64,000 nt of DNA from Candidatus Omnitrophota bacterium (GCA_015233335.1 JADFXX010000008.1:11798-75797); one strand, 5' to 3'; positions 9,797 to 31,844 are shown, counted from the first letter of the stretch. Program-made: numbers and translations. The notes: generated by a model not told the origin, from the sequence alone.

Positions 9797-10437
9797 AGGA
9801 TATGGAACATCATTCCGATCAGCGTCATCATGGCCATGGCCAAGATTGCAGCCATAGACACCCCAGTTTCGCTACTCGATGGTTATTGAGCGTATTGATG
9901 GTGGGAGTGATCTTGATTTCTTTGCGGTCTTTTCTGATAGGGCAGATGTTTGTCAGGCTGACGTCTTATTCTGCGTATTCCTATTATAATGACGCCATTC
10001 GTATATGTAAGAAAATTATTGCGATCGACCCGGGTAATAAACAAGCTTGGACGGCTCTGGGGTTTTCCTATATGGACGAGGCTCATGTGGATGGGGCTAT
10101 CAGGGCATTTGGGAAGGTCCTCGAACTTAATCCCCATGATCAAGGAGCGGCCTCCTTCGAGTTGGGCCAAGCTTATTTTTTGAAAAAGGATTACGTCCGC
10201 GCCATTGATTATTTTAAACGTGTCAGAGGCCGGGGGCCTCGCGCCGGAGTTCTGTTAGATGCGGACATTCTTAGATACCGACATGGTGTATCGGGATTTC
10301 AAAGTGTGCACAGCATGCGAATTTTACTGGGCATGCTGATCAAGTGTTATCAACAGACAGGAGACACATTAAAGGCCGCTGAGGTCCAAAAGGAATATGA
10401 TTTTTATAAAAATGAGCATAAAAAAATATTATTTTAA
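9793..10437 (+). CDS. TPR-repeat protein with His-rich N-terminus and a TM anchor
   Basis: N-terminus MKDMEHHSDQRHHGHGQDCSHRHP, then a TM helix and TPR repeats (AWTALGFSYMDEAHVDGAIRAFGKVLELNP...). Confidence 0.6.
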   Translation: MKDMEHHSDQRHHGHGQDCSHRHPSFATRWLLSVLMVGVILISLRSFLIGQMFVRLTSYSAYSYYNDAIRICKKIIAIDPGNKQAWTALGFSYMDEAHVDGAIRAFGKVLELNPHDQGAASFELGQAYFLKKDYVRAIDYFKRVRGRGPRAGVLLDADILRYRHGVSGFQSVHSMRILLGMLIKCYQQTGDTLKAAEVQKEYDFYKNEHKKILF

Positions 10438-10445
10438 TCTAAAAA

Positions 10446-10546
10446 GTGTCATTGCGATCGTCATTTTCAGTGTCAAAATGTCTTATTGCTTCGCAATCAC
10501 AGGGTTGTGTCATTGCGAGCCCTTTTATTGGGCAAAGCAATCTTTT
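10446..10546. repeat. Palindromic repeat family A copy (GTCATTGCGA.. / ..AAGCAATC, two half-units)
   Basis: The sequence gtgtcattgcgatcg...attgcttcgcaatcac...gtgtcattgcgagccc...gcaaagcaatctttt lies directly upstream of the znuA-like signal peptide. Confidence 0.8.
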
Positions 10547-11428
10547 AGAAATATCGGACTATTAGGCTTGTTTTTTGTGTTTTTCACTGTAACGCCGGCA
10601 CATGCAGATAAGATCAAAGCTGTTGCAACCTTCAGTGTTATCGCTGATATGGTTCGCCATGTTGCCGGGGACTCTATTGATTTGCTCGTTCTGGTCGGCC
10701 CCAATGCCGATGCCCATGAATATGAGCCGGTTCCCGCGGACTCCGTTCACATTTCCAAAGCGGATATTATTTTTGAGAATGGCTTACACTTAGAGCATTG
10801 GCTTGACAAGCTTTATACGGCAAGCGGCACAAAAGCAAAACGCATTATTGTCTCCCGGGGAGTTTCTGTCCGGACCATGGGGGATAATCCTCAGGAATCC
10901 GATCCGCATGCTTGGCAGGATGTCACTAATGTTATCCTTTACGCCCAAAATATTTGTGATGCGCTTGTGGTTCTCGACCCTGTGAACAGGGTGAAATATG
11001 AGGCCCAAACTAAGGATTACGTCAAACAACTGCAAGCATTGGATGGCTGGGTTAAAGCTCAGGTTGCTCTTATCTCCGTAGAAAAGCGTAAATTAGTCAC
11101 TAATCATGATGCTCTAGGGTATTTTGCCCGACGTTATGGTTTTCAAATCATTGGGGCTGTTATACCCTCTGCAACAACTGAAGCGGCAGATCCCTCTGCC
11201 TTGCAAACCGCCCAATTATTAGATATTATTAAAAAGAACAACGTGCGTGCTATATTCTCGGAAAACATGGCTAATCTTAAATTAGCCCAGACCCTTTCAA
11301 AAGAAGCAGGTGTTGCCGTTGGCCCTGAATTATACACAGATGCTTTAGGGGTGATTGGTAGTGATGCCCAGACGTATATTCAAATGATCAAACATAATGT
11401 TAAGATTTTTGTTGAGTATTTAAAATGA
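10478..11428 (+). CDS. znuA: Metal (Zn/Mn) ABC transporter periplasmic substrate-binding protein, ZnuA/TroA family
   Basis: Signal peptide ending TPAHA, then IKAVATFSVIADMVRHVAGD. TroA-fold family protein followed by the ATPase and permease. The start is uncertain: the table ORF begins at 10397 and reads through repeat A; the in-frame ATG at 10478 is preferred here. Confidence 0.75.
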   Translation: MSYCFAITGLCHCEPFYWAKQSFRNIGLLGLFFVFFTVTPAHADKIKAVATFSVIADMVRHVAGDSIDLLVLVGPNADAHEYEPVPADSVHISKADIIFENGLHLEHWLDKLYTASGTKAKRIIVSRGVSVRTMGDNPQESDPHAWQDVTNVILYAQNICDALVVLDPVNRVKYEAQTKDYVKQLQALDGWVKAQVALISVEKRKLVTNHDALGYFARRYGFQIIGAVIPSATTEAADPSALQTAQLLDIIKKNNVRAIFSENMANLKLAQTLSKEAGVAVGPELYTDALGVIGSDAQTYIQMIKHNVKIFVEYLK

Positions 11429-22815: not shown

Positions 22816-22913
22816 ATCATTGCGAGACCTGTTGAATGTGTCATTGCGAGGAGCCGAAGGCGACGTGGCAATCTTTCTAAAAGATTGCTTCGCTTCGCTC
22901 GCAATGACACGAT
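22816..22913. repeat. Palindromic repeat family A copy (full hairpin)
   Basis: catcattgcgag..gtgtcattgcgaggagccgaaggcgacgtggcaatc...gattgcttcgcttcgctcgcaatgacacg is a long imperfect inverted repeat. Confidence 0.85.
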
Positions 22914-24467: not shown

Positions 24468-25477
24468 ACTTTGCCAACCCCCAAGCTTGGGTATTATTGT
24501 GGCTATTGCCTTTGATCGCTCTAGCCCTGCATTTGTTTTATCAATACCGTCATCAGATGATGTCGCGTTTTATTCAAACTCATTTGCTTGATGAATTAGC
24601 TGAAGGTTTTAGTTTAAAGCGCTTACGACTCAAAGCCGTATTCCTGATGGCAGCTTTTGTATTGATGGTCGCGGCATTAAGCCGGCCCCAATGGGGATAT
24701 CATATGCGTGAAGTCAAACGTAATGGTTTAGATATTATGATAACGGTCGATGTGTCTAAAAGCATGCTGACACAGGATGTTAAGCCGTCCCGGCTTGAGA
24801 GAACCAAGCTTGCTGTCAAGGACTTGATCATGAAATTGGATGGTTCGGACCATATAGGTTTGATCGCTTTTGCGGGTGACGCGATGGTGATGTGTCCTTT
24901 AACGTATGATTATAACGGTTTTTTATTAAGCCTTGATGACCTAAGCGTTGATTCTATTCCCCGTGCCGGCACAAATCTTTCTGGGGCCATTGATGAAAGT
25001 GTTAAGGCGTATGAAGGAAGGGTTGATTCTGATAAGGCGGTGATTTTAGTGACAGATGGAGAAGAAGAAGAGGGCAATGCCTTGAATGCCGCCCGCAAGG
25101 CCCATGACAAGGGTGTGCGCATATATACAGTGGGGGTCGGCACGCAGGAAGGGGATTTGATCCAGGTGACCAATGCTGACGGACAGACAGAATTCCTCAA
25201 AGATTCTGACGGCAATGTGGTCAAGTCCCATTTAAATGAAAATTTATTACAGCAGATCGCCTATATCACAGGTGGTGCGTATGTCCGAAGTGCGGGGGCA
25301 GAATTTGGGCTGGATTATTTATATGAACGCCAATTATCAAAACTAAAGAAGCACGATATGCAGGAAAAAATGGCCAAGCTTTATGATGAGCGTTTTCAGT
25401 GGCCTTTAACTTTGGCATTTGTATTTTTATTAGCAGAAACTTTGATTTCAACTAGGAGAAGAAATGTCTTGCGGTAA
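24464..25477 (+). CDS. batB: vWA domain protein BatB-like
   Basis: TM helices, then a vWA domain (DIMITVDVSKSM...LVTDGEEEEG) and a C-terminal TM helix. Confidence 0.85.
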   Translation: MNFANPQAWVLLWLLPLIALALHLFYQYRHQMMSRFIQTHLLDELAEGFSLKRLRLKAVFLMAAFVLMVAALSRPQWGYHMREVKRNGLDIMITVDVSKSMLTQDVKPSRLERTKLAVKDLIMKLDGSDHIGLIAFAGDAMVMCPLTYDYNGFLLSLDDLSVDSIPRAGTNLSGAIDESVKAYEGRVDSDKAVILVTDGEEEEGNALNAARKAHDKGVRIYTVGVGTQEGDLIQVTNADGQTEFLKDSDGNVVKSHLNENLLQQIAYITGGAYVRSAGAEFGLDYLYERQLSKLKKHDMQEKMAKLYDERFQWPLTLAFVFLLAETLISTRRRNVLR

Positions 25478-25624
25478 AAGGGAATGGAAGAATATAGTTT
25501 TTCACGGCCGGCGCATGACCCCCATCCCCACAAGCTCGGCGCTTCGGGGGTATAGTTATAAGCACCCCCTGTGCGCCTGTGGGGTAGCTGGCCTTAGAAA
25601 AACTATATTCTTCCATTCCCTTTT
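25476..25624. repeat. 28-bp perfect inverted repeat (AAAAGGGAATGGAAGAATATAGTTTTTC) flanking a 93-bp GC-rich structured insert; candidate MITE or structured RNA
   Basis: Arms 25476-25503 and 25597-25624 are exact reverse complements. The insert has internal stems CCCCACA/TGTGGGG and GGGGG...CCCCC. Confidence 0.7.
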
Positions 25625-25634
25625 AGCTACATTC

Positions 25635-26567
25635 ATGATGCTTCCTTTTTTGGCTTGGGCTTCAGTTGAAGGTGATGTCAACAAAGCCAATGATCTTTAC
25701 AAGCAAGGCAAGTTTGATGACTCTTTAAAATTTTATCAAGAGGCCCTGGACCATGATGCAAAGTCGCCTGTTATTCCGTATGATTTGGGCACGGCCTTAT
25801 ACAAAAAAGGTGACTATGTGAAAGCCCGTGAATATTTACAAAAAGCCGCAGATGATAAAAGCTTGAAAGTGAAAACTCAAGCGGAATATAATTTAGGTAA
25901 TGTTCTTTACAAAACAGGAATACAAAAAGAGAATACTAATGTAGATGAAGCGATTTCGAATTTAGAGGACGCTTTGGGGCATTATGGACAGGCTTTAGCG
26001 CAAGAGCCTCAAGATCAGGACGCTAAATCTAATGAAGATTTCGTTAAAAAAGAGATCGAGCGTTTAAAGAAGAAAAAGCAAGAACAGCAGAAACAGAACC
26101 AACAACAGCAAAAACAGAACAAACAACAGCAACAAGATCAAAAACAGCAACAGCAAGATCAGCAGAAGCAGCCCCAGCAAAAGCAAGATCAAAAGAACCA
26201 AGAGAAGGACCAACAAAAGCAAGACCAGAAGCAACAAGAGAAGGACCAGCAAAAACAAAACGATCAGCAGAACCAACAAAGCCAACAAGATCAACAGAAA
26301 CAACAAGATCAACAGAAACAACAAGATCAACAGAAACAACAAGATCAACAAAACCAACAAGATCAGCAAAAACAACAAGATCAGCAGAAGCAACAGGACC
26401 AGCAAAAACAGCAGGACCAGCAGAATCAGCAGGAGAGTCAAAAAGACCTTGATCGTAAAGAAGCCCAAGATCTTTTAAAAGAATACCAGGACAATGAAGA
26501 GCCTAAAAAGCTTTTAAATTTTGCGCCAAAAAAAATAGACGACCGCCCTGTGCTTAAGGATTGGTAA
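25635..26567 (+). CDS. batC: TPR protein with long Gln/Lys-rich low-complexity region (BatC-like)
   Basis: Signal-like N-terminus MMLPFLAWASVEG, TPR repeats (LYKQGKFDDSLKFYQEALDHD...), then about 115 aa of QQKQ/DQQKQ repeats. The table ORF begins at 25464 and reads through the inverted-repeat element. Confidence 0.6.
   Translation: MMLPFLAWASVEGDVNKANDLYKQGKFDDSLKFYQEALDHDAKSPVIPYDLGTALYKKGDYVKAREYLQKAADDKSLKVKTQAEYNLGNVLYKTGIQKENTNVDEAISNLEDALGHYGQALAQEPQDQDAKSNEDFVKKEIERLKKKKQEQQKQNQQQQKQNKQQQQDQKQQQQDQQKQPQQKQDQKNQEKDQQKQDQKQQEKDQQKQNDQQNQQSQQDQQKQQDQQKQQDQQKQQDQQNQQDQQKQQDQQKQQDQQKQQDQQNQQESQKDLDRKEAQDLLKEYQDNEEPKKLLNFAPKKIDDRPVLKDW
26080..26440 (+). repeat. Coding tandem repeat (18-bp CAACAAGATCAACAGAAA-like units) encoding the poly-Q/K tract
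   Basis: Many near-identical units (caacaagatcaacagaaa x3, caagatcagcagaagcaacag...). The antisense reading gives a spurious poly-Leu ORF (26064-26468). Confidence 0.75.
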
Positions 26568-26568
26568 T

Positions 26569-29500
26569 ATGCAAGTGTCATTGCGAGCTCTCGTACCAGT
26601 GTCATTGCGAGCGAAGCGAAGCAATCTTTTCCTTTGTCTTTTGATGCTTCTGTCTTCAACCGGCACCTTAAAAGCTGACACTGTCAGCTTTGAGGCGAGT
26701 GTCAATTCTTCCAGAATTTCTTTAAGCGAAGTCCTGCAGTTGAACTTGACCGTGACCGGACTTAAGGACAATATTGACCCCATCAGCCTTCCTGTTCTTG
26801 ACGGTTTTTCAGCCAAATATCTTGGACCTTCGACCCGGGTGTCGATCGTGAATGGTGATTATCACAGCGAACGGTCTTTTGTTTATGACCTGTTTCCCAA
26901 CAAAGTAGGCCATTTCCAAATTCCGCCTATCAGCGCCACCATTGCAGGGCAGACCTATGTGACCAAACCTATTGATATTGAGGTCGTCGCGGACTCCGCT
27001 GGGGCTCAGGCACCTGCACCCCAACAAGCCCAAGATCAAGCCCCCAGCATCCAGAGCCTAAAAGACAAGATTTTGATCCTAGTTTCTTTAGAGAAAGAAG
27101 AAGTTTATTTGAATGAGCGTGTGCCGTTGAGCGTCAAACTTCTTGTTAACGATGTGCCCATACGGGACATTCAATTCCCTCAATTTGACAAGCAAGGCTT
27201 TGCGGTTGATGATTTTCAAAAGCCTCAGCAATATTCGCAGGTGCTCAACGGGGTCAAATATGATGCAGTGGAATTTAAGTCATATATTTATCCTACCCAT
27301 TTAGGGGATGTTCCCATCGGGCCTTTTCAAATTGCCGGTAATGTTGTTTATAAAAACGGCAATAACAATCCTTTTAATCAGGACATGAATCCTTTCGGAG
27401 GCGGTCTTTTTAAAGATTTTTTTGATTCCTATGCCACCCGTCCTGTGACCGTGACTTCCCGGCCGTTACCTATGCATGTTAGGGCCTTGCCGCAGGAAGG
27501 CCGTCCGCGGGATTTTTCCGGGGCTGTCGGCCAGTTTGATTTTCAGGCGAGTGTTTCTCCGTTACAGGTCAAGGCCGGAGATCCGATAACCTTAAAGATG
27601 TCTCTCAAAGGCAACGGCAATTTTAAGAGTGTGACAATGCCTGTCTTTCAAGGCGCTGGCTTTAAAACGTATGAGCCTAAGATAAAGGACCAAGCAGATG
27701 AAAAAACAGCAGAGGAAGTGATCATTCCCACCTCAGCCCAAGTCACCCAAGTGCCTGCCTTGCATTTTTCTTATTTTGATACATCCCTTAAAGATTACAA
27801 AACGATCACTCAGGGTCCTTTTGCCATTCAAGTCATGCCTAACGCTCCTGATGAAGGGTTTAAAGCAGTTGGTTTTTCTGATGTCAGCCGGGAGCCGGCA
27901 ACCTTGCATATAGACCAGTTTTCTTTTGGGAAAATGTTCCATACGATCCGCAAGGGTTTAAGCAAGCTATGCAAATCAATAGGTTTTTGGCTGACACTAG
28001 GATTGATTATTGTAGGAGGAGGGTCTTATTTTTTGTGGCGGCGTTTTCAGGAACGCCTTGAAAATGATCCCGCGTTTGCCCGCAGGCTTAAGGCCTATAC
28101 GGAAGCTAAACAAACCTTACGTATGGCGCAGGGTTATATTTCGACCGGTAAGTCTAAGGATTTCTACACGCTTTTATCAAGGGCCATCCGCGAATATCTG
28201 GCCAATAAATGGCATCAATCGCCGGCAAGTTTAAGTATTGAGGAAATACTAAAACAGCTTAAATCCGCAGGGATTGATGAAACTCACATCGAAGGGGCAA
28301 AAAATATCCTAACCACAAGTGATCTGGTCTGTTTTGCGGGCGCAAACCGCGATGCCAGCCAGATGCAATCCGACCTTTCTTTGACCCAAAACCTGATCAA
28401 TCATTTGCATATCTCATTGCGAGCCCCGAAGGGGCGAAGCAATCTTTTATCTCTATTTTTCTCCATCAGTCTTCTTTTAACTGCCACCGCTTGGGCAGAT
28501 CTGCCTTGGGTCAAACAGCAGAGTTCAGCGTTTTCCGGTGAGGGGGTCTGGTTCGGTGCCGCGATGTCCGCTGACGGGAGTCGTTTGATACTGTTGGATG
28601 TGTATAATGGTTTGTATATCTCAACTAATGGAGGAGCCAGTTGGAGTCAGTATAATCCCAGTACATATCATTATACATATTGGCGTGCTGTTCCTGCTAT
28701 GTCTAGCGACGGTAGTCATGTGATGGCGGGGAGTTATCAATATCATGGAAGATTATATCTTTCGGTCAATGGTGGTGTGATTTGGAGTGAAACCCGGCCA
28801 GCAGGTGATAATGATCTAAATTGGAGTGTGACTGCCATGTCGGGTGACGCAAGTCATTTGCTGGCTGGAGTAGGTAGTTTGTCAGGACGTTTATATCTAT
28901 CGAGCGATGGGGGAGCTCACTGGGTTGAGATCCAGCCTGATGGGAATAACGATGAAAATTGGAATACGGCCGCCATCTCCAGTGATGGAAGTCATTTGAT
29001 CGTAGGTGAATATAACAATGGCACGACTAATCGGGGACGTTTGTTTTTTTCGAAAGATGGAGGTGCTACTTGGTCTGAAACTCAGCCGGCAGGTGCTACG
29101 GAACAATATTGGAAGTTTGTAACCACTTCCAGTGATGGCAGTCATTTTATGGCTGGAATTAATGGTGGGCAAATATATACCGGTGTTTTGTCCGGTGGGA
29201 TCATCTCATGGACCGGAGGTGTCAGTAGGGGTTGGTATGTTGGCGCCAGTTCCAGTGACGAGAGTTATTTGCTGGCGGGAGTATATGTTGGACGTCTGTA
29301 TTATTCAACCAATGGGACTGCCGGGACTCCGACTTGGACTGAAACTCGACCCGCAGGGGCTAATAATTATGTATGGAATGCAGGATCTATAAGTAGTGAC
29401 GGGACTCATATGATGGCAGGGATTCAGGGGGGCGAGGTGTTTATTTCGACAAATGGGGCAACGAGTTGGAGTGAAACTAAGCCTCAAATAGATCAAAATT

Positions 29501-30510
29501 GGGATACTGTTGCCAGCTCTCGTGACGGAAAATATTTGATGGCCGGGCATGACAGGCATTTGTATCATTCAGTCGACGGAGGATCAACTTGGAGCGAAAA
29601 TCAGCCAGCGGGAAATTTGAATAGATATTGGTATTTGACCGCCAGTTCCGGGGATGGGACAATTTTGTTAGCAGGAGTGGCAGGGGCACGATTATATCTT
29701 TCGACCAATGGCACTGTTTCAACTCCCACTTGGGCGACAACTAATCCCGTCACTTCAGGGGGTGTGAATAGATCTTGGTATACAGGCGCTATATCCCGCG
29801 ATGGCAGTCATGTGATTGTGGGAAGCTATAGCAACACCGGACGTTTATGGGTTGGGGTTGTAAACGCAGGGACGATCACATGGTCTGAGGCTGGTACAGC
29901 GGCAATTGGTCTTCACAGAGACTGGCAGACAACTGCCATTTCCAGTGACGGAACCTATGTGATGGCAGGGAATTATCTTGATAGTAACTATTACGCAGGA
30001 CGGCTATATGTTGGCGTTTTAAGCGGCGGGGTTTATAGTTGGAACGAGAAACAACCGGCAGGAAATTTGGATGTGGACTGGGTTGTGACAGCCATGTCCG
30101 CTGACGGGAGTCATATGATGGCCGCAACAATACCCGACAGTAATGGTGATCCGGGGGGCTTATATCTCTCGTATGATGGGGGCACGACTTGGTCAAGCCC
30201 CACTGATCTGTGGATAGTAAATAGTGATCAATATTGGCAGATAGGTTTTATGTCCAGTGACGGAAATTATATTGTTGTAGGAGATGATTCAAGTTTGTAT
30301 GAGTCGACAGACGCAGGTATCACATGGAGACCCCTCAATTTCCCGGCAGATGTTAGCTATAATGGTTATTCTCTTAATGCTGTTGCCGGTTCCAGCGACG
30401 CTAGCCATTTGATAGCGGCATCAAATGGTATTGGTTTATATGTCTCCGCCGTCGGCGGAAAAGCCTCCAATCTAACTCAAGTCCAAAATCTAACACAGGT
30501 GACGTTTTAG
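26569..30510 (+). CDS. batD: BatD-like aerotolerance protein (N-terminal ~610 aa) continuous with a BNR/Asp-box beta-propeller domain (C-terminal ~690 aa); possibly two genes
   Basis: BatD-like N-domain and TM helix (FWLTLGLIIVGGGSYFLWRRF). After the in-frame repeat at 28414 comes a second hydrophobic segment (LLSLFFSISLLLTATAWA), then more than 15 copies of S-x-D/N-G-G-x-x-W (STNGGASWSQ, SVDGGSTWSE, SYDGGTTWSS...) alternating with SSDGSHL/MAG. Confidence 0.7.
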   Translation: MQVSLRALVPVSLRAKRSNLFLCLLMLLSSTGTLKADTVSFEASVNSSRISLSEVLQLNLTVTGLKDNIDPISLPVLDGFSAKYLGPSTRVSIVNGDYHSERSFVYDLFPNKVGHFQIPPISATIAGQTYVTKPIDIEVVADSAGAQAPAPQQAQDQAPSIQSLKDKILILVSLEKEEVYLNERVPLSVKLLVNDVPIRDIQFPQFDKQGFAVDDFQKPQQYSQVLNGVKYDAVEFKSYIYPTHLGDVPIGPFQIAGNVVYKNGNNNPFNQDMNPFGGGLFKDFFDSYATRPVTVTSRPLPMHVRALPQEGRPRDFSGAVGQFDFQASVSPLQVKAGDPITLKMSLKGNGNFKSVTMPVFQGAGFKTYEPKIKDQADEKTAEEVIIPTSAQVTQVPALHFSYFDTSLKDYKTITQGPFAIQVMPNAPDEGFKAVGFSDVSREPATLHIDQFSFGKMFHTIRKGLSKLCKSIGFWLTLGLIIVGGGSYFLWRRFQERLENDPAFARRLKAYTEAKQTLRMAQGYISTGKSKDFYTLLSRAIREYLANKWHQSPASLSIEEILKQLKSAGIDETHIEGAKNILTTSDLVCFAGANRDASQMQSDLSLTQNLINHLHISLRAPKGRSNLLSLFFSISLLLTATAWADLPWVKQQSSAFSGEGVWFGAAMSADGSRLILLDVYNGLYISTNGGASWSQYNPSTYHYTYWRAVPAMSSDGSHVMAGSYQYHGRLYLSVNGGVIWSETRPAGDNDLNWSVTAMSGDASHLLAGVGSLSGRLYLSSDGGAHWVEIQPDGNNDENWNTAAISSDGSHLIVGEYNNGTTNRGRLFFSKDGGATWSETQPAGATEQYWKFVTTSSDGSHFMAGINGGQIYTGVLSGGIISWTGGVSRGWYVGASSSDESYLLAGVYVGRLYYSTNGTAGTPTWTETRPAGANNYVWNAGSISSDGTHMMAGIQGGEVFISTNGATSWSETKPQIDQNWDTVASSRDGKYLMAGHDRHLYHSVDGGSTWSENQPAGNLNRYWYLTASSGDGTILLAGVAGARLYLSTNGTVSTPTWATTNPVTSGGVNRSWYTGAISRDGSHVIVGSYSNTGRLWVGVVNAGTITWSEAGTAAIGLHRDWQTTAISSDGTYVMAGNYLDSNYYAGRLYVGVLSGGVYSWNEKQPAGNLDVDWVVTAMSADGSHMMAATIPDSNGDPGGLYLSYDGGTTWSSPTDLWIVNSDQYWQIGFMSSDGNYIVVGDDSSLYESTDAGITWRPLNFPADVSYNGYSLNAVAGSSDASHLIAASNGIGLYVSAVGGKASNLTQVQNLTQVTF
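26574..26630. repeat. Palindromic repeat family A copy (double unit) at the 5' end of the batD-like gene
   Basis: gtgtcattgcgagctctcgtaccagtgtcattgcgagcgaagcgaagcaatctttt. It encodes the N-terminal VSLRALVPVSLRAKRSNLF of the ORF. Confidence 0.85.
28414..28448 (+). repeat. Palindromic repeat family A copy inserted in-frame inside the batD/BNR ORF
   Basis: ctcattgcgagccccgaaggggcgaagcaatctttta differs by two substitutions (C/G at the first base, C/T at base 12) from the copy inside lpxB. It encodes SLRAPKGRSNLLS. Confidence 0.8.
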
Positions 30511-30655
30511 GTTGTCATATCGTCATTCGCGATGAATTTTAAGATGTCTTAAGGTCCTTCGCTTTGCTCAGGACGACGAAAATAAAGGTGACGGGCGTAT
30601 TTATTATTAAGACGTCTTAAGGTCCTTCGCTTTGCTCAGGACGACGGGTACAGGA
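30511..30655. repeat. Repeat family B: two tandem copies of AAGA(T/C)GTCTTAAGGTCCTTCGCTTTGCTCAGGACGAC plus a CGTCATTCGCGATGA half-site
   Basis: Direct repeat at about 30541-30587 and 30609-30655, in the convergent intergenic region between the batD/BNR ORF and lpxB. Confidence 0.8.
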
Positions 30656-30662
30656 TTACGGA

Positions 30663-31844
30663 TTAATATGCCAATTCGTTGAGGACTATATGTGCCGCGC
30701 GTAGGCTGGCTCCGGGCTCGCCTAAGGATGTTTTAACTGCGGCTAATTCATTAACGATTTGTTTATTATTTAAAGCATTTTCTACAGCACGGGCGATTGT
30801 CTCGGGCTTGGCATCATTTTGGATCAGTTCTTCCGCCACTTTTTTTCCGGCTACAATATTGACCAAACCAATATAAGGAATTTTGATCACAGCTTTTGCT
30901 ATTGCATAGGTCAGCCAAGAGGTCTTATAAATGATGACCATGGGTTTAAGGAGCAATGCGGTTTCTAAAGTGGCGGTGCCTGAGGCCACCATGGCGGCAT
31001 CCATGGCATTGATACCGTCATAAGTTGTTCCGTCGTAGATTTTTATAGGAAGGTCTTTTAATGCAGTGTCATTGCGAGTCCCGAAGGGGCGAAGCAATCT
31101 TTTAAGTGACCGTCCCATTAGCACAGATTCAATAAATTTTAACGGGATGGTCGATGCTTTAAGCAAAACGAACTGGCGGTCATGGTCTTGTTCGAAAAGC
31201 TTTTGGGCCGCTTCCAGCATACAGGGCAGATGGCGTTCGACTTCTTTAGCGCGCGAACCGGGCATAAGTCCTATGGTCGTTTTACCCTCGGATAAGCCAA
31301 TGTTTCTTAAAACCTCTGACGGTGTTTTGCTGACTACGATTTCATCAACTAATGGATGTCCGACATAATCGACCTTCATGCCGTATTTGGTGTAAGTTTC
31401 CTGTTCAAAAGGGAATAACACGATCATGCGGTTAACCAATTCTTTGATCTTTTTGACCCGTGCCTCTTTCCAAGCCCATACCTGCGGGGATATATAGTAG
31501 ATGATCTTGATGCCGCGTTTTTTTATTTCACGGGCCAAGCGCAAATTAAAACCCGGATAATCGACGAGGATGACGGCGTCAGGGTGGGTGGTATCGATTT
31601 GGACTAACGCCTGATCAAAAACTTTTTTGATGCGGCCTAAATTTTTAAGCACTTCGACAAAGCCGATAACTGCAAGTTCGGTGATATCCGTAAAACATTC
31701 AACTCCGGCTTGGCGCATATGCGCACCGCCGATCCCGCTTAAACGCAGGGATGGCTGAAGCTGTTTTAAAGCGCGAGCCAGACCGGCCGCGCGCATATCA
31801 CCGGACGCTTCACCAGCTATGACCATTAAATGATAATTTTTCAT
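30663..31844 (-). CDS. lpxB: Lipid-A-disaccharide synthase
   Basis: N-terminus MKNYHLMVIAGEASGD, YYISPQVWAW, and conserved VASGTATLE. AAGGGTG ribosome-binding site upstream of the ATG at 31844. The table ORF extends to 31874. Confidence 0.92.
   Translation of the reverse strand: MKNYHLMVIAGEASGDMRAAGLARALKQLQPSLRLSGIGGAHMRQAGVECFTDITELAVIGFVEVLKNLGRIKKVFDQALVQIDTTHPDAVILVDYPGFNLRLAREIKKRGIKIIYYISPQVWAWKEARVKKIKELVNRMIVLFPFEQETYTKYGMKVDYVGHPLVDEIVVSKTPSEVLRNIGLSEGKTTIGLMPGSRAKEVERHLPCMLEAAQKLFEQDHDRQFVLLKASTIPLKFIESVLMGRSLKRLLRPFGTRNDTALKDLPIKIYDGTTYDGINAMDAAMVASGTATLETALLLKPMVIIYKTSWLTYAIAKAVIKIPYIGLVNIVAGKKVAEELIQNDAKPETIARAVENALNNKQIVNELAAVKTSLGEPGASLRAAHIVLNELAY
31066..31103 (-). repeat. 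Palindromic repeat family A copy inserted in-frame within lpxB coding sequence
   Basis: gtcattgcgagtcccgaaggggcgaagcaatctttta. On the lpxB strand it encodes KRLLRPFGTRNDT immediately N-terminal to the conserved KIYDGTTYD...VASGTATLE block. Confidence 0.8.

Follow-up and report, generated by a model that had tools for sequence, protein, structure and literature searches.

A batD reading frame joined to a double beta-propeller gene at a short palindromic repeat in a Candidatus Omnitrophota assembly

In a 64-kb window of DNA from Candidatus Omnitrophota bacterium (the whole stretch analysed, whose positions serve as coordinates throughout), a gene for BatD runs without interruption into a region that encodes a BNR-type beta-propeller. 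Does this locus encode one protein or two, and how were the two parts brought together? The single open reading frame (ORF) at 26569..30510 on the plus strand has 1313 codons and an ATG start, exactly as an earlier interpretation made from the DNA alone (the sequence-only reading) had reported. The identical protein of 1313 amino acids (aa) has the accession MBF0504546.1 and the title [quoted passage not shown], where MAG is a metagenome-assembled genome, and is encoded on an 81.7-kb contig; this automatic label hides a composite. We lean towards explaining the locus by a fusion of two genes in this lineage, which took place at a small palindromic repeat and is translated as one chain.

A complete BatD and a complete propeller in one open frame

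The ORF is composed of the following features.

26569..26676, plus strand: BatD signal peptide, MQVSLRALVPVSLRAKRSNLFLCLLMLLSSTGTLKA followed by D (in orthologues MKKFILCFFMLMATSSVLWA followed by D)
26575..26630, plus strand: 1.5 repeat copies within batD, codons 3-20, in frame after codon 2 (ATG-CAA conserved)
26677..27978, plus strand: exported BatD body with BatD/DUF11-like domains (PF13584 in three stretches, orthologue identity)
27979..28038, plus strand: BatD transmembrane (TM) helix IGFWLTLGLIIVGGGSYFLW, residues 471-490, with a Kyte-Doolittle 19-residue peak of 1.73, followed by RRFQERLE and conserved in orthologues
28039..28419, plus strand: conserved BatD cytoplasmic tail, running to ...NLINHLHISL (orthologue alignment, 3' DNA, phmmer ends)
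28414..28449, plus strand: junction repeat copy TCATTGCGAGCCCCGAAGGGGCGAAGCAATCTTTTA, encoding SLRAPKGRSNLL and then S, with a predicted fold of -15.1 kcal/mol
28417..28497, plus strand: former propeller signal peptide, L/M-RAPKGRSN + LLSLFFSISLLLTATAWA followed by D (hydropathy, A-x-A before D)
28498..30510, plus strand: 14-blade BNR/Asp-box double beta-propeller, two seven-bladed, with the TAG stop (Pfam, periodicity, AlphaFold2, Foldseek)

Residues 1 to about 616 make up a complete BatD, matched by Pfam PF13584 in three stretches with 106.2 bits (cut-off 24.1). The exported domain, TM helix and cytoplasmic tail proposed earlier for this part were all recovered from Pfam, the orthologue alignment and hydropathy, and no match to the BatD half was found among PDB sequences. 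The homologue search gave 374 matches, and the figures on orthologues refer to the best 120 of these. They have no domain other than BatD, their identity was 36-72% (60-72% in the closer ones) with 96-98% coverage of the BatD query, and the complete orthologues have about 560-640 aa, mostly 590-630 aa. All 13 close orthologues that were aligned end with ...LI(N/A)HLEKSL(K)-stop, which is aligned to ...LINHLHISL in the window. According to this 13-protein alignment and the 3' DNA of orthologues, the repeat (TCA TTG CGA...) starts exactly at the position of their stop. A BatD would be expected to end after the tail (...HLEKSLK-stop, about 590-630 aa), and the window ORF does not.

The C-terminal half was matched by Sortilin-Vps10 (PF15902, 55.9 against a cut-off of 33) and BNR (PF02012, 29.9 against 27), and its DNA showed a periodicity of 138-150 nucleotides (nt). 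There are 14 blades, each with one SxDGxH(L/M/V) strand, and the Asp-box S-x-[DN]-G-x-x-W is recognisable in about 10 of them and degenerate in 4. Residues 644-1313 were predicted by AlphaFold2 to be all-beta, with about 56 strands and a mean predicted local distance difference test score of 84.5. The Foldseek search against the PDB returned double seven-bladed propellers with a probability of 1.00 (2ymu, Aip1 1nr0, and the GH74 structures 6p2l, 5jwz and 4lgn). The TM-scores were 0.55-0.64 for these best matches, and 0.54-0.59 for GH74 6p2l, 5jwz, 4lgn and 2cn2. At the sequence level the propeller half had no match in the PDB, and the NCBIfam glycosylhydrolase model F510_1955 scored 66, below its cut-off of 175. 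The propeller named in the sequence-only reading was therefore supported by Pfam, AlphaFold2 and Foldseek, while its count of more than 15 Asp-boxes was too high.

Homologues of the propeller part are stand-alone proteins, in which a classical N-terminal signal peptide is followed by a W-x-E-T-Q-P first blade, and AWA/DLPWVKQQ in the window fits this pattern. The comparison with BNR-propeller proteins that had been suggested earlier thus showed separate genes with their own signal peptides. In the window, the h- and c-regions of such a signal peptide are present, and the sole in-frame start candidates are TTG codons in or before the repeat, which lack Shine-Dalgarno pairing. The core LLSLFFSISLLLTATAWA lies at residues 626-643 (peak 624-645) with a hydropathy of 1.58, and the net charge is -1 after it.

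The junction itself is formed by the repeat, whose stem ATTGC/GCAAT encloses an inner stem GCCCC/GGGGC. It sits in place of the batD stop and of the start codon and n-region of the propeller gene. The in-frame, near-identical copy of an lpxB repeat that had been noticed here was confirmed, with 35/36 identity to positions 31069-31104 within lpxB; such a match occurred 0 times in 100 shuffles, and the number expected by chance was zero. Directly 3' of the repeat peptide comes LFFSISLLLTATAWA; if the LLS in front of it is counted in, the hydrophobic stretch has 18 residues, with A-W-A at its end, before D. The segment agrees with the earlier description as signal-peptide- or TM-like. It was also correct that the repeat forms a bridge, being multi-copy, and that it donates positive charges ahead of the second hydrophobic segment, where the net charge is +3 (RAPKGRSN). 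No in-frame stop occurs between batD and the propeller, and 697 codons follow the BatD part.

The sequence-only reading had offered two interpretations of this arrangement, namely (a) a genuine fusion or (b) a second gene that starts at the TTG in the repeat. Since there is no stop between batD and the propeller, ribosomes that begin at the batD ATG must read through. The predicted anti-Shine-Dalgarno pairing was +2.2 kcal/mol before TTG 28417 and +0.6 kcal/mol before TTG 28405, compared with -5 to -12 kcal/mol in many genes of the window and a background mean of -2.4 kcal/mol. In addition, TTG 28417 lies within the outer stem of the hairpin (fold about -15 kcal/mol), and no sigma-70-like promoter site was found upstream of the propeller part on the plus strand. 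Nor was the repeat predicted to be an intrinsic terminator. The check for an internal ribosome-binding site proposed for interpretation (b) therefore found none, and (b) was unsupported; it also cannot restore a normal BatD because the stop codon is missing. As initiation signals and a stop are both absent, the assembled sequence encodes a fusion, and internal initiation is at most a minor addition to it. Interpretation (a) was upheld in that the assembled DNA encodes a fusion whose type has a precedent in BatD-BatE proteins; as it is seen in a single MAG, it is a candidate for a genuine and functional fusion.

Other proteins of this kind were searched with phmmer, using residues 114-1313 as the query against 1.84 billion representative proteins. 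No protein matching both halves was found among the best 150 matches. The BatD matches of 590-630 aa ended at query positions 484-504 (residues 597-617), two BatD-TPR fusions reached positions 528 and 539, and the propeller matches began at position 533 or beyond.

The propeller part has a single close relative, P0026 (538 aa, 67% identity over residues 159-697), which is MBF0504004.1 (HQL14_02760). Because this accession is 542 numbers away from that of the fused protein and the organism name is the same, we infer that P0026 is not an orthologue but a paralogue encoded on a different contig of this MAG. P0026 is annotated from mid-blade 4 (MWVSSDWGAHW...), without a signal peptide, on a 169-kb contig; the sequence upstream may be broken or annotated as a gene of its own. 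At its C-terminal end the propeller shares 18 identical residues, GGKASNLTQVQNLTQVTF (30457-30507), with P0026; they contain an internal NLTQV duplication and may serve as a sorting or anchoring tail. The DNA of this tail has no second copy within the window, and a scan of JGI metagenome contigs with the tail pattern NLTQVQNLTQVTF gave 0 matches. In scans of GTDB genomes, single-protein patterns gave 0 matches, and alignment-derived patterns, which are generic Asp-box words, gave only distant propellers. A recent foreign origin of the propeller was also considered and is unsupported, the GC content being 0.47-0.50 compared with 0.44-0.47 in the flanks.

Gene order in relatives and the hairpin repeats

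Outside the ORF, the comparison with relatives concerns these features.

30663..31844, minus strand: lpxB, convergent (synteny with L047, L048-50, L051 and L052; alignment)
30539..30646, no strand assigned: a second hairpin repeat family (reverse complement GTCGTCCTGAGCAAAGCGAAGGACC), present twice and taking up the spacer from the propeller stop to the lpxB stop
31069..31104, plus strand: lpxB repeat copy, in frame, read as RLLRPFGTRNDT on the minus strand; L051 lacks this insertion
10510-10545 (ORF 10397-11428): znuA repeat copy, in frame, CHCEPFYWAKQSF, immediately before the signal-peptide core

The neighbours of batD are moxR, a DUF58 gene, batA, batB (VWA) and batC (TPR), as assigned by Pfam, and this order is also present in the relative contexts L047-L058. 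The full conserved order is moxR-DUF58-x-batA-batB-batC-batD, then lpxB-Gfo/Idh/MocA-msbA; the Gfo/Idh/MocA gene and msbA lie beyond lpxB where the contigs of relatives reach, and in the same way after 30663 in the window. The ATG at 26569 is the ancestral batD start, one base past the batC stop, and orthologues have TAAnATG in the same place.

In none of seven relative contexts does the batD-lpxB gap contain the propeller gene. Four independent relatives (L047, L048-50, L051 and L052) have the batD stop 0-25 nt from the convergent lpxB stop or overlapping it. In L053/54, L055/56 and L057/58, batD is followed by a different large secreted-protein gene after a spacer of 40-123 nt; in L055-L057 this gene lies between batD and lpxB, and in L055 it has an AGGAGA Shine-Dalgarno sequence and an ATG. 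Because batD in relatives precedes either a convergent lpxB or a separate, unrelated gene, the propeller gene is a lineage-specific insertion. Judging from gene order and alignment, batD and the propeller are ancestrally separate genes, and the gap is a variable slot whose occupant is joined to batD only in the window, among the contexts compared. The comparison with BatD orthologues of the typical length of about 600 aa, suggested earlier as a check for separate genes, thus found BatD alone in orthologues, with its stop at the junction. The sequence-only reading had stated that it would be refuted by orthologues with a consistent stop between the two parts combined with a sequencing or assembly error at this locus, or by C-terminal repeats that do not form a propeller. 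The orthologues do stop there, which is one half of the first condition, and structure prediction gave a propeller fold.

The two copies of the second hairpin family (GTCGTCCTGAGCAAAGCGAAGGACC) at 30539..30646 form the right-hand border of the inserted segment, and a related copy is located directly past the batD stop in L048-L050. The large secreted proteins after batD in relatives (L053:6927-, L055:6989-10483, L057:6892-10527) have 1164 to 2837 aa and are mutually related. They have no solid Pfam match, and their N-terminal region shows 51-65% identity. Beside the gene in L057 there is a PhdYeFM/ParE toxin-antitoxin pair.

The unit of the junction repeat is GTGTCATTGCGAG-(variable inner hairpin)-CGAAGCAATCTTTT, about 32-36 nt long. 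In its fold (-12 to -15 kcal/mol), a GA/GAA internal loop separates the ATTGC/GCAAT stem from an inner stem rich in GC, and its 10-mer TCATTGCGAG occurs 8 times in the 64 kb compared with 0.16 expected. In one frame the repeat encodes a basic peptide, SLRAKRSNL or SLRAPKGRSNL. The lpxB copy forms a loop insertion of 12-17 aa. The same loop of lpxB in L048 (9839-11035) carries the repeat in opposite orientation (VSLRAKRSNL), and L051 is without it. In three cases in the window, namely batD, the propeller gene and znuA, the repeat stands just before a signal-peptide core. The znuA-type periplasmic binding protein has no usable start codon between the repeat and this core. At the 5' end of batD, comparison with the DNA of L047-L051 showed that the repeat replaces the "KK" n-region of orthologues by VSLRALVPVSLRAKRSN; these copies had gone unmentioned in the sequence-only reading.

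Repeat-derived peptides were also found right after the start codon, in both orientations, in 9 other BatD orthologues of the 120 (P0146, P0157, P0164, P0169, P0176, P0180, P0183, P0206 and P0233; see also L052:600-660). They take the forms VSLRG...EAIF, KDCFASLAMT and RLLRSL.SLAMT. It therefore seems that the repeat has landed, or been kept, at the 5' end of batD repeatedly. These results indicate that the repeat tolerates translation, since it is read in frame in batD codons 3-20, in the lpxB loop, in znuA and in the 9 BatD orthologues. The C-terminus of P0146 (...FLRNDA) was rejected as repeat-derived because its DNA shows only an overlap with lpxB. A generic "stem5-GA...AA-stem5" hairpin class was likewise set aside, with 36 members compared with 15-29 in shuffled controls, which is not clearly above them; only the ATTGC family is real. 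An Rfam scan of 20-34 kb at E<=1 found no family for either hairpin repeat, and a full-text literature search for the repeat strings and their peptide translations gave unrelated primer matches only.

Several further repeats were observed nearby. A repeat cluster at 22817-22910, between the DUF58 gene and the next gene, consists of a partial copy and an inverted pair, and the pair (22841-22910) forms a long hairpin of -41.3 kcal/mol (z = -6.45). The lpxB of L048 has an insertion of a third repeat family (MCHSRDLLCHSRESGNP) in another loop, which is absent in L051. The 5' end of batC (ORF 25464-26567) contains, at 25475-25625, an in-frame element of 151 nt whose inverted ends TAAAAGGGAATGGAAGAATATAGTTTTTC are perfect over 29 nt. 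The protein gains about 45 residues ahead of its signal-peptide core through this element, an extension present in L051 and not in L053 or L057; the element is single-copy in the window. A Gln/Lys-rich low-complexity region of batC (26040-26450, QQKQQDQQK...) is expanded and built of 9-nt-periodic repeats, and BatC has 367 aa here compared with 278-313 aa in relatives.

Proposed origin of the fusion and competing explanations

The fusion could have arisen in a few steps. The ancestral batD of about 600 codons ended with ...HLxxSL(K)-stop and faced lpxB, as in the relatives, and a gene for a secreted 14-blade double propeller was inserted into the batD-lpxB slot in this lineage. This gene probably arrived with the ATTGC repeat already in its signal-peptide n-region, in the same way as in batD and znuA. 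Relatives end batD with codons (TCT TTA TAA in L051, TTA AAA TAA in L047 and L048) that resemble the start of the repeat, TCA TTG CGA, and the GTG found ahead of other copies is missing from the junction copy. The next event may have been a deletion or a recombination at the TCATT(A/G) microhomology between the last batD codons and the repeat. Such a step would have removed the batD stop, any spacer with a ribosome-binding site and the propeller start codon, leaving the parts in frame by chance. On a rough estimate (about 1/3 for the frame, and about one half for no stop in about 12 codons), an in-frame outcome free of stops is not improbable.

The product would begin with a cleaved signal peptide, the periplasmic BatD body and TM helix 1. 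These would be followed by a cytoplasmic tail of about 125 aa and the repeat-encoded RAPKGRSN on the inner side of the membrane. The former signal peptide would serve as TM helix 2, from inside to outside, and the double propeller would then lie in the periplasm. As both modules would keep their original membrane side, such a fusion would be tolerable, and the retained A-W-A/D site could let signal peptidase I free the propeller later. We consider this fusion to be probably a tolerated accident, not a designed BatD-propeller machine.

Several points weigh against the proposed fusion. The combination is known from one MAG only, and a search of JGI metagenome contigs with the pattern "batD DLVCFAG + 55-85 nt + repeat" gave 0 matches. 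The fusion is a singleton, and selection may not be maintaining it. The putative signal-peptide and TM assignments were made from hydropathy and the -3/-1 rule. Moreover, a 145-kDa two-pass protein with a 670-aa periplasmic domain past a cytoplasmic tail may be inefficiently inserted.

One rival explanation is an assembly or consensus artefact, in which a real batD stop and the ribosome-binding site and start of the propeller gene were lost at the 36-nt repeat, or repeat copies were misjoined. The single MAG without an independent assembly, the position of the join exactly on a multi-copy repeat with a near-identical copy 2.6 kb away, the stop kept by every relative and the spacer present wherever a gene follows batD would all be accounted for in this way. 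However, synteny resumes correctly on both sides of the junction, so an artefact would need two compensating misjoins. The sister copy, also 36 nt long, leaves the essential gene lpxB in frame, which argues against an indel error inside the repeat, and as the repeat is not followed by any other start before the signal-peptide core, an error of one base would not suffice. The k-mers of final metagenome assemblies are usually longer than a 36-nt repeat, which would also count against an artefact. We regard an artefact as unlikely. The production of two proteins, with ribosomes starting at TTG 28417 (or 28405) in the repeat as the main route to a secreted propeller, appears a little less likely still. 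MRAPKGRSN-LLSLFFSISLLLTATAWA before D has the form of a textbook signal peptide, the n-region in batD likewise consists of the repeat, which also adjoins the znuA core, and about 1/3 of the genes in the window have no clear Shine-Dalgarno sequence. Yet BatD would carry the propeller regardless, given the missing stop. The unfavourable pairing of +2.2 kcal/mol, the TTG paired in a hairpin of -15 kcal/mol and the lack of a promoter-like site also oppose this route, and in batD the conserved start is the ancestral ATG and not the TTG of the repeat.

The fusion could also be real in the DNA but represent the first step of decay, in which an extra propeller copy or BatD itself is inactivated and the ORF is open because the event is recent. 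The uniqueness of the event, the second, diverged copy that is an apparent paralogue in the same MAG, and the accessory-gene turnover in the variable batD-lpxB slot would suit such a course. We consider it very unlikely: all 697 downstream codons are open, all 14 blades are intact with a confident predicted fold, the 67% identity to the paralogue implies a long divergence without stops gained, and the bat operon is otherwise conserved. A more ambitious proposal goes beyond the tolerated accident that we prefer. It holds that the ATTGC repeats of this Omnitrophota clade land or persist preferentially in signal-peptide n-regions, that homology between copies recombines secreted-protein genes, and that BatD-propeller is functional in tethering the propeller to the Bat complex. 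This proposal is doubtful at present. If the n-region preference were true, a donor signal peptide would become an internal membrane anchor, giving a repeat-driven route to new envelope-protein architectures.

Comparison with known systems

BatD (PF13584) is found in Omnitrophota and other phyla, and it shares the signal peptide, domains, single TM helix, tail and operon context with residues 1-616. The window ORF differs from it in having no stop after ...HLxxSL, 697 codons more and a repeat-encoded n-region. The nearest likeness in membrane layout is found in BatD-BatE fusions (BatD + TPR + SH3b, 820-900 aa), such as the "BatD family protein" P0006 of Deltaproteobacteria. In these proteins (P0002-P0017, P0352 and P0392), TM1 is followed by a tail of about 120 aa, and an internal hydrophobic segment that resembles a signal peptide and ends in A-x-A leads to a TPR/SH3 module. 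One example of this internal segment is MNAKYILITFFLLSLSACACA before ADF. The predicted layout of the window fusion therefore has a natural precedent. In contrast to them, the module in the window is a BNR propeller with no known Bat link and no TPR or SH3 match in Pfam. The joint is a mobile-looking repeat, and one genome, not a clade, carries the fusion. Fusions of bat genes are reported from several phyla, with records for Leptospira, Borrelia, Spirochaeta and Francisella (PMC3557215).

The propeller half resembles GH74 xyloglucanases (6p2l, 5jwz, 4lgn) in its two seven-bladed propellers and Asp-box motifs, with the fold compared by predicted structure. It differs in the lack of a sequence-level match, and no enzymatic assignment was made.

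In-frame intragenic palindromic repeats are known, for example Rickettsia palindromic elements and other MITEs (miniature transposable elements with inverted repeats; review PMC10969869). Like these and elements of the repetitive extragenic palindromic (REP) type, the window repeat is a multi-copy palindrome that lies in frame at tolerant sites of conserved genes and gives translational fusions. The likeness to Rickettsia palindromic elements is by description and not by sequence, and the repeat is about 32-36 nt long compared with about 100-150 bp. Neither terminal inverted repeats nor target-site duplications nor a partner transposase were identified for it, though no search aimed at a transposase was made. 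Furthermore, it stands at the join of two whole genes, which is more than the addition of a peptide.

Where a long ORF in a MAG runs across repeat copies, it needs to be validated with reads. If the junction is true, a very short palindromic repeat would have erased a stop and a start codon together in one locus. An exported membrane protein would have been joined to a secreted protein with the topology of both intact, which would be a concrete route to domain accretion in envelope proteins. Intragenic palindromic repeats, Bat gene fusions and BNR double propellers are each already known, and a new molecular system is not revealed by this locus. What is new is that BatD is combined with a BNR double propeller, and that a repeat of about 36 nt serves as the weld that removes stop and start together.

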